In this document: one piece after another, positions 33,869 through 50,185 of the stretch
Numbering within the stretch: position 1 is the first letter of the stretch
How the letters are laid out: each line of letters begins with the position of its first letter
Source of the DNA: Eledone cirrhosa
Lineage: Eukaryota
Assembly: GCA_964016885.1 (NCBI GenBank)
Contig: OZ024745.1
Coordinates: forward strand, 39,556,001-39,620,000
Direction of reading: 5' to 3'
Length of the DNA: 64,000 nucleotides
The notes under the pieces: model-generated
Database searches by the model: none
What the model was told of the DNA's origin: nothing
Seen by the model: only the letters and a program-made list of their open reading frames with translations
Translations under genes and position numbers: made by a program

Positions 33869-34033
33869 TGGACCAGAACACACGAAAGTACTCAATACTT
33901 ATGGTAGTAGAGTGGGTAATAGGAATAAGTATGACCCCGACGGCAGAGCTCACTCCGGTTCGACGGCTATTTCTGGAACAAGAAATAGCCGTCGAAACGG
34001 CTTGAGCTCTGCGGTCGAGGTCATACTTGTTCA
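33869..34033. mobile_element. Family F fold-back solo pseudo-LTR
   Basis: Homologous to 2553-2690; inverts at ~33979, within HHR stem II. Confidence 0.85.
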
Positions 34034-35276
34034 TATATATGTATATATATATATATATATATATATATATATATATATATATATATATATATATGTATAT
34101 ATATATATATATATATATATATATATATATATATATATATATATATATATATATATATATATATGTATATATATATATGTATATATATATATATATATAT
34201 ATATATATATATATATATATATGTATATATATATATATATATATATATATATATATATATATATATATATATATATATATATATATATATATATATGTAT
34301 GTATATATATATATGTATGTATATATATATATATATATATATATATATATATATATATATATATATATATATATATATATATATATATATATATATATAT
34401 ATAATATATATGTTTGGTCATATGTGTGTTTGTGTGTACTTGTGTATTTACTTATATTTATACATGTATGTATGTGTGTATGTATGTATTTGTATGTGTC
34501 TGTATATACTGTATGTATGTTTATGTATATGTGTATATGTATTCCATGTGTATGTATATGTGTGTATATGTGTATGTGTGTGCACGCGTATGTGTATATA
34601 TATTTGTATATATGTATATATATATATATATATGTGTGTATATATATATATGTCTATGTGTTTATTTATATATATATTTGTTTGAGTGTATGTATGTACG
34701 TTAGTATATGTATTTGTATACACACACACACACAAACATATATATTTATATATATTTATATATATTTATTTATATATATATGTTGTTATATTTGGGGAGT
34801 GTCATATTTGCGTAATATTGCCAGAATTAATAACAGAACACACTCACTGTTTGGTGGGTTTTCGCTTCTCGCTGTCTTTTATATCTGCGATCTAACTTGC
34901 TCTGTCCTCAATGTTGCCATGGACTGACCGGCGGTCAAAAATAATACAGATACAATATAGACTCAAACACATATATATAGTTTACATAATTTACATAAAT
35001 CTTTCGTTGCTCTTCTGCAACATCGTCAGTGGTGTTATATATATGTATATGTATGTATATATATATATATATATATACATATATGTATGTGTATATGTGT
35101 GTATATGTATGTATATGTATACGTTTGTATACATGTATATATATATATATATATATATATACGTGTGTGTGTGTACGTGTGTATATATATATGTGTGTAT
35201 AGTTGTACGTATGTGTATATATATATATATATTTATATATATATATATATATATATATATATGTATATACATATGG

Positions 35277-35665
35277 TATAAACGTTTGTATTTGTAAAGA
35301 CAAAACAATGCAGGTATGGACACAGAATAAAAATACAAATGCAAAAGATATTGTTGACAATTAGTCTTTTAACTTAGACTTATTTAAATGTCCTTAATTC
35401 TCGAGATAATATCTCTTCTTTGGGGGAATTAATGAGGTTAAACCAGTGTTCAAAATAGCTTGCCAAGTTATGACTTATCAAGCTATTTAGAACACTGGTT
35501 TAACCGCTTTCCTTCCCTCCGAAGAAGAGATATTATCTCGAAAATTAAGGACATTTAAATAAATCTAAGGTAAAAGACTAATTGTCAACAATATCTTTTG
35601 CATTTGCATATTTATTCTATGTCCATACCTGCATTGTTGTGGCTTAACAAATACATACGTTTATA
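35277..35665. mobile_element. Family H fold-back palindrome with HHR-like motif (35516-35550 plus)
   Basis: Arms invert at ~35471; CCT-CCGAAGA-A GAGAT ATT ATCTC-GAAA-AT-TA-AGG. Confidence 0.8.
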
Positions 35666-35927
35666 CCTCATTACACAATGCTTCAAAGTGAACTATAACT
35701 TCCTCCATATATATATATACATATATATATATATATATATATATATGTATATGTATATATATACAAGTTATATATTAATATATATGATAAACACAAAACG
35801 TGTTTGTATTGTAACAGACAAAGTTAGCTAGCATGAAATAAACTAATTAAAGTGAATACAATTTGTCTGTCTCGATATAAGTCAATAAAGACAAGCTTAT
35901 ATTGGCAAAAGCCGTGATTCCTGGACA

Positions 35928-46355: not shown

Positions 46356-49300
46356 AAGATAGATATATAGATGGATTGATACTTAGATGTATAGATAGAT
46401 AGGTAGATAGATAGATAGATATATAGATAGATAGATAGATAGATAGATAGATAGATAGGTAAGTAGACAGATAGCTAGATAGATAATCAATGAAATATAA
46501 GATTGATCGTAATATATAGAGACATCTAGAGCAAAAGTGTTATATTTATTAAATCGTATGTCAGGAGCAGCACTATGCACTTCTTTTGTTCCCGAGTAAA
46601 ATATAAAAAGTCGTGAAGGTGTGATTGATTAAATGTTAAATCATACAGAAACGGCTTTTCAAACTATTCTGACGTGATTGCCATAAAAGTTTCCAAAAGT
46701 AACATGTGTTGCGAGGTAAACTGTAGCAGGAAACAATAGAATAGAAAGATTTAGCGTCAGCTAATTCTTGAACATGGCACATGAAATTATTTTCAAATGA
46801 TTTAGCATATAAGTTAACAAACACTATTAGCATGGTACACATAAGTTTCACATATATGTATATGTGTGAAGACATGCTGCACTGTGGTTAGGGATTTCGC
46901 CTCAACAGTCGCCTGCTCTGTCGAAATTATCGAGTGGAAGATTCATCGACAGAAGAGACGTGGAAGGGGATGGGGCAGCAATATCATCATATACATACAC
47001 AGACAGAGAGACAGACGCATACACACAAATACACACATAATCCCCCCCCCCCACACACACACATATATATATATATATATATATATATATACATATATAA
47101 ACATTCATACACTTAACATGTATGTGCGACCATTGCGTTCGGTTTTCAGTTATGGCGACCTGTATATTGGAGTAGGCGGATTTTAAATTGGCAATTCATT
47201 CGACGAGTCGGCAGTTACGTGTATGAAACTATGGTTATACTAAATTAGCTCTCTTGCCACATATTGAGAATTGCTTTCCTTGATCTTTCTTTTACGGCTT
47301 TCTGCACACACACACACACACACACACATACACACACACACGCGCGCGCGCGCACGCACACGCACATATACATACACGCATATACACACACACAGACACA
47401 CACACAGACGCACACTCACTCACTCACACACACACTAACTCACACACATACATATATATCGAGAGTTAACCTAATATATCCCTTCCACATACTATACCGA
47501 TTGTGTTGTTATTGCTGTTTAACTTTTACATACATATATATATATATATATTTGCGCAAGCTGAGAGAAAATCGTAGACATAACAGGAACTGGATTTATT
47601 GGGCAAGAGAGATAACTTCATTCGTATTGTTATATCTTAATATAGATGTTTATATATTATGACAGCTCTGTAGAAACGAACAGGGACATTGCAGTTGAAA
47701 ATCATGTAGGTCGTAACCAATTAAGACTTGAGGTCAGATAGAGAAATTTAAAGAAGGACTACCAGAATTGGTGACAATCTATCACGAAGAACAACTGTTT
47801 ATCTACCAGTAACAACTGTCATTTGATCTTATTTATACAAGTGTCCCTTCTACTTGCACTTCTTAACTAACTATTTTCCTATCACTGTGAAATTCCATTC
47901 AACCAATGCCTCCTTTATTAGTGGCTATTCATAGAGAGTTCACGCACGTAATTTAGAAAAAGTATAATAAAAAAGGGGTTATTTAAAAAAAATAGGGTAA
48001 TATCTGAGGGAGGTAATTCTTGAGAGATCACACTCAATCCAGAATGGAAATTGAAGCACAATAATTTCTTCTAGTTGACTCCAGGGATCACATTTCACTG
48101 AAATACAATATAGACAGTAACTCGAAAAATACTTCTGGAATTGTAAGTCAGGCCTAAACCATTAATCCAAATTACCTGCCCTACGTGAACTCTCTTGTTA
48201 TATCCCCATAGGGAAAGCACACTCAACAATAGGCGGCTATCTTTGTTTTTCATTTTTCTCATGACAGGCTGAAGAAATTGTGGCCAACGTGTTATGTCAC
48301 TGTTGTAATTACTTATACTGAACTCGTCTTATGGATTGAGTGATCTTACTCTTGGATATTTGCGCTTAACCTTTACTTCAGGATATATATATATATATAT
48401 ATATATATATATATATATATATATATATATATATATATATATATATATATGTGTGTGTGTGTGTGTGTATGTGTGTGTGTGGGGGGGGTATGTATATTTT
48501 TATATATATATATATATATATATATAATAATAATAATAAATGTGAAGACTAAAATCCAAAGAGGGCTCGATAAGGATAAATATATATCAAATATATAAGG
48601 AAGCTAGACCAAATATTTATTAAAATAACAGATTAAAGTTTAAGCAAATAATCGCTGCTTTCACCCTTAATTATATATATATTACCATGTAGCACACGCT
48701 TTATTTTACTCCTCCTGTTTTTTATCTTATAGATTTGCGTATATCTGTATTTCTGTTTTATTACCGTTCGAAGATTAATTGTGTAATTCATTTCAATAAT
48801 TATTTGGTCCTCATTTGTAGTAAACAAAGGGAATTGGGAATTGAATGTAGATATTTACCCATGCGTTTCCTATAAAGGAAATTTGCCCTATGGTATTTCT
48901 TTAAATATTCTACTGTAAATTTAACAGTTGAATATTCAGATATCTTGGGGATCTGTTTGTAAAACAAACATACATTATTTGTTTTTTTCCATATGTCAGA
49001 TGTTCACTTATGATGTTGGTGTTCTAATTCTTTAGTGTATGAAACAGCCTACTGCTAAATGTAACGTGAACATTATTGGGTAGTCCGCACATATGTGTGC
49101 CCTAAATGAATATTTCAGGGAAATTCAGCGTGATACTTCATATAACATTTTGAATCAAAGATACACCTGATTTGTTTTCTATGTGTGAAATAGGGATAGG
49201 TGTAATAAATTGTCTTGTCGAAACCACACTACCCTACGATTGCAACGCTCCATCCCATCAATTTCAATTCTCATCGTATTTTTGATTACTGCAATATCCA

Positions 49301-50019
49301 CTACTCTTAGACCTATGTGCACACTTGAGTACCGGAAGCAATTTTTTTACCTAGGAACAGAATATATTTATAAGAATTTATAACAGAATTGTGTTTAATT
49401 TTTTTTTTATTTTCATTTAAATAAAGAATATTCATTTATATATCATGTTATATAATATAGCTCTAGATCCGATTGTCTTTTCTTGTGCTTTCTTGCAAAT
49501 CTTGTCACACAAAATATGATTTTGATAGAACTACGAAATATCGATTCCTATTTTGTACTGGAAAACACATTTCCTTAAGTTATTTAACAAATTATATTTT
49601 AAATTCGTAATTTCGTGGTACAAATTGAACGTATTTCAGCAGGTTCCATCCCCCATTGAATGTTCTACTAGTTTGTATTAAAACGGTTGTCATATTTACG
49701 ATATTCATTTTGTCCATCTACTGACAGAAAAGAAGAGATACACAATCTTGAATATATATATATATATATATATATACATATATATATATATATATATATA
49801 TATATATATACATATATATATACATATATATATATACATATATATATATATATACATATATATATATATATATACATATATATATATATATATATATATA
49901 TATATATATATATACATATATATATACATATATATATATACATATATATATATATACATATATATATATACATATATATATATATATATATATATATATA
50001 TATACATATATATATATAT

Positions 50020-50185
50020 AACGAAGGAAATGTGGTAAGGAACCAGGTGGACCATAACGCACCAAAGTACTCAATACTTGAGGTAGTAGAGTGGGTAATA
50101 GGAACCAGTAAGACCCCGACAGCTGAGCTCAAGCCGTTTCGACGAAACGGCTTGAGCTCAGCTGTCGGGGTCTTACTGGTTCCTA
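50020..50185. mobile_element. Family F fold-back solo pseudo-LTR
   Basis: Inverts at GTTTCG-A-CGAAAC (50142); TA on both sides. Confidence 0.9.

Follow-up and report, generated by a model that had tools for sequence, protein, structure and literature searches.

What sets the breakpoints of the head-to-head fold-backs found in the genome of Eledone cirrhosa? These fold-backs are short Penelope-like insertions in (TA)n, each with one long and one short arm, and the initial annotation of this DNA had proposed that a hammerhead ribozyme sets the point at which reverse transcriptase (RT) stalls or switches template. We analysed a window of 64,000 nt (GCA_964016885.1, contig OZ024745.1, 39,556,001-39,620,000, forward strand), and copies of family F were collected across the genome by pattern matching. 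ARAGORN found no tRNA genes in the window.

Identity of family F

By its sequence features, family F is the pseudo-LTR (pLTR) of a Hydra-type Penelope-like element (PLE). The F repeat lies on both sides of an ORF (pLTR, in partial tandem), and the window holds an example of the upstream copy (Table 1). F has two fixed 3' ends, +42 and +121, both ahead of the first ATG, at distances of ~90 and ~170 nt; F arm ends are numbered from the G of GAAA (position 0), and those of other families relative to position 3 of the ribozyme core. Long F ends with TATA directly after them number 33,433, against 41 that read into the ORF leader. A long arm is paired with a short one in 107 of 146 F pairs, giving an inverted 5'-truncated copy with a one-sided tail.

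Set against the Hydra motif list in the accessible text of PMC8557442, the F protein has the CxCX5C linker, DKT, CxxC and CxH, no CCHH, and a (TA)n target. It reads RWR where the Hydra clade has RWK. A VIY...YIG stretch, as of a C-terminal GIY-YIG endonuclease, closes the ORF ahead of the 3' UTR; two cysteines inside GIY-YIG are absent, and the Pfam GIY-YIG score of the protein was below the cut-off (E 0.069 only). The protein matches an Atlas cluster at 0.95; of the members of this cluster 23% carry GIY-YIG. A Pfam search of the two RT-region pieces in the window gave zero matches.

Judged by motif, the predicted F hammerhead is real. Of 11 aligned copies, 8 have the core UUGANAA, which is the U3-A8 variant of PMC4209133, and 3 have CUGAGAA; pairing holds in 91.8% of cells, against 27-50% when slid, with no two-sided change. 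Rfam returned no hammerhead match in F and, among the matches listed, only a sub-threshold HH9 for the family that breaks at 19268. The possibility that F has no hammerhead, CUGANGA being absent, was rejected, as its core is the U3-A8 variant. Also rejected was F as a non-LTR retrozyme (tandem non-coding hammerhead units), since F is tied to an ORF and forms head-to-head stubs.

Table 1. Features of the window discussed in the text; arm ends in brackets use the numbering given above.
Feature	Position	Strand	Details
Long F copy	2552..3204	-	3' UTR and pLTR, complete ribozyme, 3' end of the long type (+121) within (TA)n
Predicted type I hammerhead of F	2647..2740	-	stem I CCCC/GGGG, core UUGAAAA, long stem II, GAAA, GUC
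Landmarks of the F hammerhead	2736; 2673; 2651	-	U3; G of GAAA; predicted cut after GUC
TTAGT, initiator-like motif	2689..2693	-	A at 2691 (-18), inside stem II; putative transcription start of F
Broken RT-region ORF pieces of F	3624..4815	-	DKT and RDDG-like motifs, by eye
F tail	5189..5253	-	runs straight into ORF leader; upstream pLTR of the element
Family K fold-back	5320..5500		family pile-up at -8 from core
Family H0 fold-back	11461..11791		both arms end 77-78 nt upstream of canonical core
Truncated F copy	20232..20341	-	ends at -18 to -20, the F pile-up site
Family M fold-back	26011..26272		both arms end at or within a few bases of predicted cut
Family G fold-back	27943..28305		several copies end at -43..-50, about a TCAGA motif; ends taken from plain BLAST rather than by strict calling
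F insertion 1, head to head	33868..34036		antisense arm 33868-33977 (-16), 3-nt insert, sense short arm 33981-34036 (-13) with 3' end at +42; both arm ends 2-5 nt inside F pile-up site
F insertion 2	38902..39069		antisense long arm to 39025 (-2), sense short arm from 39027 (-3)
F insertion 3	44437..44599		antisense long arm to 44555 (+3), sense short arm from 44550 (-7); 6-nt overlap within native palindrome around GAAA
F insertion 4	50019..50186		antisense long arm to 50144 (-4), sense short arm from 50143 (-1), 2-nt overlap
Family J fold-back	58595..58800		core CAGAAGA; family pile-up at -5

Breakpoints in the window

The initial annotation had placed four F fold-backs in the window, all at the junction of stem II and GAAA. 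Their coordinates are correct, and three do lie at that junction; the first lies 13-16 nt off, at the main pile-up of the family. Both arms end at GAAA in only 4 of 103 F pairs elsewhere, so that the cluster seen in the window is untypical. The four junctions differ, as had been noted, and 91 distinct junctions were found among the 103 F pairs. Descent from one pre-folded master element was rejected on this ground.

For the fold-backs at 19268, ~41722 and 44221, also assigned to the ribozyme, this holds for one arm each; the partner arms end 15, ~70 and ~30 nt upstream of the core, the last two distances being read by eye. The breakpoint at 26126, in family M, was confirmed to lie at the predicted cleavage site. 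The H0 fold-back is a counter-example, inside the window, to ends set by the ribozyme. It was missing from the earlier list of fold-backs.

Arm ends across the genome

Arm 5' ends were determined by strict calling; lenient calling inflates -22 through a native inverted repeat in F. Arms at locus edges, arms without the long or short 3' end and three low-complexity H2 matches were left out of the counts, and the rate tables omit the central F arms of L001-L030 and L161-L190, which had been chosen on the tested region.

Breakpoints are strongly non-uniform genome-wide, in agreement with the initial annotation. In 659 arms of six families, each family has a single site at which 5' ends accumulate, at 0.074 ends/nt against 0.0034 downstream, the site having been picked in five families from the same data that yield the rate. 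Relative to core position 3 the pile-up lies at +43 in F, -5 in J, -8 in K, -80 in H0, -69 in H1 and -122 in H2. Twenty H1 arms end at -69/-70 and zero between -71 and -170. For H2 the prediction was fixed before the loci were examined; of 71 arms, 21 end at -124..-115 and 5 in the ribozyme. Among truncated F arms 127 of 241 end at -22..-11, the main pile-up, and 32 at -7..+3; of the 103 F pairs from outside the window, 78 place an arm in that pile-up. The K pile-up is diffuse (12 of 55 truncated arms), and the H0 stops at -11, -24 and -56 may be spurious, arising from subfamilies that lack a reference.

Long and short arms, whose priming points are ~65-100 nt apart, share their stop positions on the template (KS p 0.19-0.90). 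Copies linked to an ORF, and the joints inside tandems (L181, L182 and others), begin at the same site as the stubs. As to a possible origin of both arms of a pair from a single RNA molecule, partner arms carry matching subfamily tags in 45 of 64 pairs, against 11.9 when shuffled; rare variants common to partner arms numbered 4, against a shuffled maximum of 6.

All six pile-up sites are the A of a YYANW motif, which we take to be a loose initiator consensus; YYANW occurs at 58 of 1225 positions in five references. Of 33 arms of five families whose 5' end is exactly at the site, 20 have an untemplated G just before it, against 8.5 expected (p 5e-6; counted per arm, some arms having a common junction). 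The excess is retained without F (11 of 20 arms against 4.2 expected, p 0.001). This test omits arms whose preceding base is templated by the partner or by the TA repeat. Inspection by eye of +28..+33 revealed no common downstream promoter element.

Does the ribozyme set the breakpoints?

A folded hammerhead that stalls RT, or makes it switch template, would fit the ends that fall inside the ribozyme in 200 of 241 truncated F arms, 44 of 84 in J and 21 of 55 in K, the three F pairs at GAAA in the window, and a mild excess at GAAA that reaches 0.010/nt when pooled, three times background. However, ends do not lie at one ribozyme feature in all families, and the feature found at the pile-up varies from one to the next. 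Where the pile-up lies 69-122 nt upstream, in H0, H1 and H2, ends in the ribozyme number only 20 in 9,682 nt at risk (0.0021/nt), below the 0.0032 seen downstream and against 0.069 at the pile-up, and the rate at GAAA is 0.0037 where the pile-up is far away. Stem III, which RT reaches first, is low in F (0.0055), and stalling gives no reason to expect the added G. The pile-ups of F, J and K overlap the ribozyme or lie next to it, which accounts for the impression that the ribozyme sets the breakpoints. Stalling by the hammerhead is thus contradicted as a general rule, and we consider it an unlikely explanation. The F pile-up spreads over -22..-11, has a second peak at -12 and falls on upper stem II, in its 3' strand, where a structural pause could contribute to it.

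It is quite unlikely that the fold-backs arise from one cDNA that snaps back by self-priming, possibly on an antisense template as in the accessible text of PMC3846280, and is resolved at a TA-like site. Snap-back does occur with R2 proteins once the full-length cDNA is made (PMC11371274), palindromic junctions are common, and partner ends lie within 10 nt of each other in 91 of 208 pairs. However, in 95 of the 208 long and short pairs the short arm extends >10 nt further upstream than the long one, with 42 pairs showing no overlap, and the short arm there has sequence absent from the long arm, as the long arm has a tail absent from the short. Neither arm can thus be a copy of the other. Snap-back may make some of the symmetric junctions, without changing where the first cDNA ends.

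Cleavage by the ribozyme would create an RNA 5' end at which RT runs off, and this applies only to a minority. Eight of 119 long F arms end at the predicted cut (+22..+24, p ~0.001), a class that may be undercounted as the short arms of cleaved F (20 nt) are too small to detect. In family M 30 arms extend as far as the cut, and 6 of them have their end between 1 nt before and 6 nt after it. Family M has a retrozyme-like tandem unit of ~440 nt; it shows no initiator-like pile-up site and has arm ends at its predicted cut. Against this, 543 of 551 arms of the six families go past the cut site, in four of the eight F arms concerned the start is at +22, a single base ahead of the expected product, and some F ends at the cut can be microhomology. 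As a general account run-off at the cut is very unlikely. The count of 543 in 551 arms bears out the view that most breakpoints lie upstream of the scissile bond. The template, held to have been uncleaved, re-ligated or circular, was mostly uncleaved; re-ligated or circular forms are not needed, and uncleaved linear mRNA suffices.

That longer palindromes lost their centres after insertion through local microhomology is most improbable: partner ends do correlate (rho 0.43, 70 pairs) and 62 of 146 F pairs overlap by 1-9 nt, but divergence is unrelated to end position (rho 0.06, p 0.55, 104 arms) and deletions would neither halt at one base nor add a G, although such loss may explain the spread downstream of the site.

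A proposed mechanism

The sequence evidence points to the stubs probably being formed when both cut target strands prime RT on sense RNA, with each cDNA running off the capped 5' end. The pile-up site would be the start of an internal Pol II promoter, such a promoter being known in the pLTR of D. virilis Penelope (PMC2377424), and the untemplated G a copy of the m7G cap; an extra G marks capped full-length L1 insertions in the accessible text of PMC11702581. The two 3' ends of F may be counterparts of the pair of internal sites at which PAc initiates in vitro. Both cDNA ends would then be trimmed by a few bases and linked through end joining, often on local palindromes. As initiation is internal, with the RNA start only ~60-310 nt away, ordinary mRNA made from the promoter would yield a stub, and an ORF-bearing copy would come only from read-through RNA of a tandem. 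As the F start lies inside stem II, promoter-started RNA would be without the 5' half of the ribozyme.

A wider form of this proposal, for which we claim somewhat less than even chances, is that the stubs, tens of thousands in number, are a fossil 5'-RACE. A dimeric PLE protein would use two internal sites on a single capped sense mRNA to prime both strands of the target, copy each to the cap and join the products head to head. The inverted pLTR of all PLEs would then be second-strand cDNA, and the F promoter inside the hammerhead would inactivate the ribozyme of the 5' copy, an intact one being present only in read-through RNA.

Relation to known systems

As described in the accessible text of PMC8557442 and PMC3846280, EN+ PLEs of the Hydra clade resemble F in their pLTR, inverted 5'-truncated copy, one-sided tail, (TA)n target and pLTR hammerhead. 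They differ in tail length, ~65-100 nt here against 30-40, and in that nearly all copies here are ORF-less stubs. The same texts describe PLE truncation as variable and palindromes as arising by antisense self-priming, not by cap run-off. A search of the accessible literature found no account of cap-ended PLE stubs.

In vitro, PAc (Poseidon of Anolis) cuts and extends both strands, with two internal initiation sites on unprocessed RNA (PMC11167929, in its accessible part). The stubs would be similar in their use of both strands, two internal sites, an AT-rich target and an unprocessed RNA template; PAc, however, initiates inside the ORF, whereas the 3' ends of F lie ahead of the first ATG. The PAc text treats neither the point at which cDNA stops nor the joining of inverted arms.

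In L1 twin priming the second target strand primes on the RNA and an inversion results. Second-strand priming that gives an inversion would be common to twin priming and the stubs, but the two L1 cDNAs cover adjacent parts, whereas in the stubs there is overlap in most cases and both arms extend to the putative RNA start. An end near the short start is weakly over-represented among long arms (35 in 6,478 nt against 52 in 17,286, p 0.006), which hints at an L1-like subclass. The extra G at the 5' junction, which in LINE-1 comes from the cap, is a further likeness to LINE-1 (PMC11702581, accessible text).

Family M and a 467-nt unit (18534-20040) resemble the animal non-LTR retrozymes in the available portion of 10.64898/2026.07.22.740005, being tandem and ORF-less with a type I hammerhead, whereas F is the pLTR of a coding element, unlike the tandem retrozymes described there.

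Run-off at the cap would give the hundreds-to-one excess of ORF-less over ORF-linked copies without a separate non-autonomous master. The stubs bear on the origin of the inverted end of PLEs, on the RNA strand that is copied and on the role of the hammerhead, as these are discussed in the accessible parts of PMC3846280, PMC8557442 and PMC11167929. The answers that they offer are testable. The start base is predicted for six families; the template would be capped sense RNA, each insertion would combine two cDNAs copied from RNA, and the ribozyme is bypassed in most cases.

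Family F and its hammerhead

In the host genome, which is 3.0 Gb and (TA)n-rich, family F lies beyond the end of a GIY-YIG-type ORF, separated from it by a roughly 700-nt 3' UTR. F is also found ahead of the ORF start, and its presence both after and before the ORF thus identifies it as the pseudo-LTR (pLTR) of a Penelope-like element (PLE). The protein carries the CxCX5C, DKT, CxxC and CxH motifs and lacks CCHH, a set of predicted motifs that matches the Hydra clade of PLEs as listed in the relevant part of PMC8557442; it has RWR in place of RWK. Exact-pattern matching genome-wide, which yields lower bounds, gave at least 33,433 F long ends followed by TATA and at least 41 running into the ORF leader.

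The hammerhead proposed for F by the initial annotation was borne out, as a prediction, by motif. The CUGANGA core is absent from F; long copies carry UUGANAA, with N7 free, about 62 nt upstream of GAAA, together with a CCCC/GGGG stem I and a long stem II. This predicted core is the U3-A8 variant described in a section of PMC4209133. The F hammerhead alignment held no two-sided (compensatory-type) changes. Non-standard cores are fixed in abundant families: U3-A8 in F, A at position 4 in J, and C at position 4 in a further family. The window also holds a large, retrozyme-like palindrome whose tandem 467-nt units carry a canonical minimal hammerhead, with few further copies in the genome sample.

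Features of the window, F arm ends and family pile-up sites (family-specific sites of 5' arm ends)
Feature	Counted in	Position
F insertion 1, arm ends	G of GAAA = 0	-16/-13
F insertion 2, arm ends	G of GAAA = 0	-2/-3
F insertion 3, arm ends	G of GAAA = 0	+3/-7
F insertion 4, arm ends	G of GAAA = 0	-4/-1
Pile-up, F	from core position 3	+43
Pile-up, J	from core position 3	-5
Pile-up, K	from core position 3	-8
Pile-up, H0	from core position 3	-80
Pile-up, H1	from core position 3	-69
Pile-up, H2	from core position 3	-122
F ahead of ORF start (example)	window	5189-5253
tRNA-like and U2 pieces	window	5666-5853
467-nt-unit palindrome	window	18534-20040
Family with C at position 4	window	35470 / 35520
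100-nt repeat	window	8707-8807, 23044-23134, 25199-25297, 25828-25927, 42191-42297, 63869-63945

Fold-backs inside and outside the window

Short head-to-head repeats are numerous in the window. The four F fold-backs (two arms joined head to head) were found where the initial annotation had placed them, and are independent, all four junctions differing from one another. Its statement that all fold back at the stem II/GAAA junction held for three of the four, whereas only 4 of 103 F pairs outside the window have both arms at that junction (p = 2e-4 for the window at the outside rate). The window is thus a rare draw, and this cluster is probably why it attracted attention. The junctions at this point exploit the native palindrome surrounding GAAA.

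The sample comprised genome stretches totalling 1.0 Mb, part of them centred on F long ends, together with loci anchored on the 3' ends of seven repeat families (F, J, H0, K, H1, M and H2), an anchoring that leaves 5' ends unselected; the majority of loci came from the beginning of contig C1. Strict calling of 5' ends used genuine long copies as references. F arms have two 3' ends, +42 (short) and +121 (long), one of each occurring in 107 of 146 pairs. Between the short and long ends, the tails of the unrelated families F, K, H0, H1 and H2 share a similar ACUC...GAGU stem, possibly a protein-binding signal.

Origin of the two arms

Among 208 long+short pairs, 95 had a short arm extending past the upstream end of the long arm by more than 10 nt, and in 42 the arms did not overlap. 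Snap-back copying of one arm from the other is thus ruled out in those pairs, and each arm requires an RNA template. This departs from the antisense self-priming put forward in part of PMC3846280. It fits Poseidon of Anolis, where the element cuts both strands and extends them on unprocessed RNA, starting at two internal sites (excerpt of PMC11167929), and it fits the internal promoter in the D. virilis Penelope pLTR (excerpt of PMC2377424). Subfamily tags were identical between partner arms in 45 of 64 pairs, against 11.9 when shuffled, which is equally compatible with one RNA molecule or two from one source. Junctions ranged from 9-nt overlaps to 39-nt inserts, as expected if two cDNA ends were trimmed somewhat and then joined by end joining. 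Post-insertion erosion as the cause of the ends was not supported.

Between two family-M arms in the window lie a reverse tRNA-like piece, which we take to be tRNA-Glu although ARAGORN called no tRNA gene there, and 100 nt from the 5' end of U2 snRNA (Rfam, 102 bits); at this junction the template probably switched to cellular RNAs. A different type of repeat, 100 nt long, shows several insertions at the same point of family M.

A probable fixed boundary of the arms

Each of six families has one pile-up, at its own position relative to the ribozyme core; that of K is diffuse, and artefacts of the references may account for some H0 ends. With 659 arms combined, the 5'-end rate was 0.074/nt at the pile-up; it was 0.010 around GAAA, 0.006 at the predicted cleavage site (cut) and 0.0034 downstream. 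Breakpoints do lie mostly upstream of the scissile bond, as had been noted: 543 of 551 arms reaching the cut passed it, though very short cleaved arms would escape detection. The accompanying proposal that the ribozyme stalls reverse transcriptase (RT) fails as a general rule, since in H0, H1 and H2 the ribozyme rate (0.0021/nt) was below that downstream (0.0032), with 0.069 at the pile-up; the annotation's observation stands in part. Of 241 truncated F arms, 127 ended at -22 to -11 and 32 at -7 to +3. As this broad pile-up extends over part of stem II, an RT pause may contribute to it. The template positions at which long and short arms stopped were the same, suggesting a fixed boundary rather than limited processivity.

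Nature of the boundary

YYANW is the initiator consensus. All six pile-up sites, of which those of F, J, K, H0 and H1 were picked from the same data, fall at its A (background 58 of 1225 reference positions). For H2 and M the pile-up was predicted before the loci were read. In H2, as predicted, 21 of 71 arms ended at -124 to -115 around TCATATG and 5 inside the ribozyme; in M, whose tandem unit measures about 440 nt, ends were scattered without the predicted pile-up, and 6 of 30 arms reaching the cut ended there, as did a minor class in F (8 of 119 long arms).

Where arms ended exactly at the site with an untemplated neighbour, this was G in 20 of 33 (8.5 expected, p = 5e-6), and in 11 of 20 without F (4.2 expected). 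The extra G at the 5' end of these PLE stubs resembles that at full-length L1 junctions, described in part of PMC11702581 as the trace of a copied cap. At locus L227, upstream of an H0 arm, the element's first bases are repeated several times, each preceded by G, which we read as priming that restarted several times at the 5' end of the RNA. No more than 30 nt past the pile-up site, a CCG(T/C)TAAGG-like hairpin occurs in J and K (inside the ribozyme) and H0 (outside it), and a 5'-terminal hairpin is predicted for RNA from the H0 and H1 sites.

Both the class of element and the form of its insertions are already known; the literature searched held no counterpart to the start-site/cap signature across six families, or to a putative start inside the F ribozyme. 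The data favour two cDNAs, each copied from RNA, with run-off at a capped start: RT would run off the capped RNA start, leaving the arm's 5' end at the family's initiator-like A. Judged from sequence, the common rule would be that breakpoints are physical RNA 5' ends, mostly the start site and sometimes the ribozyme cut.
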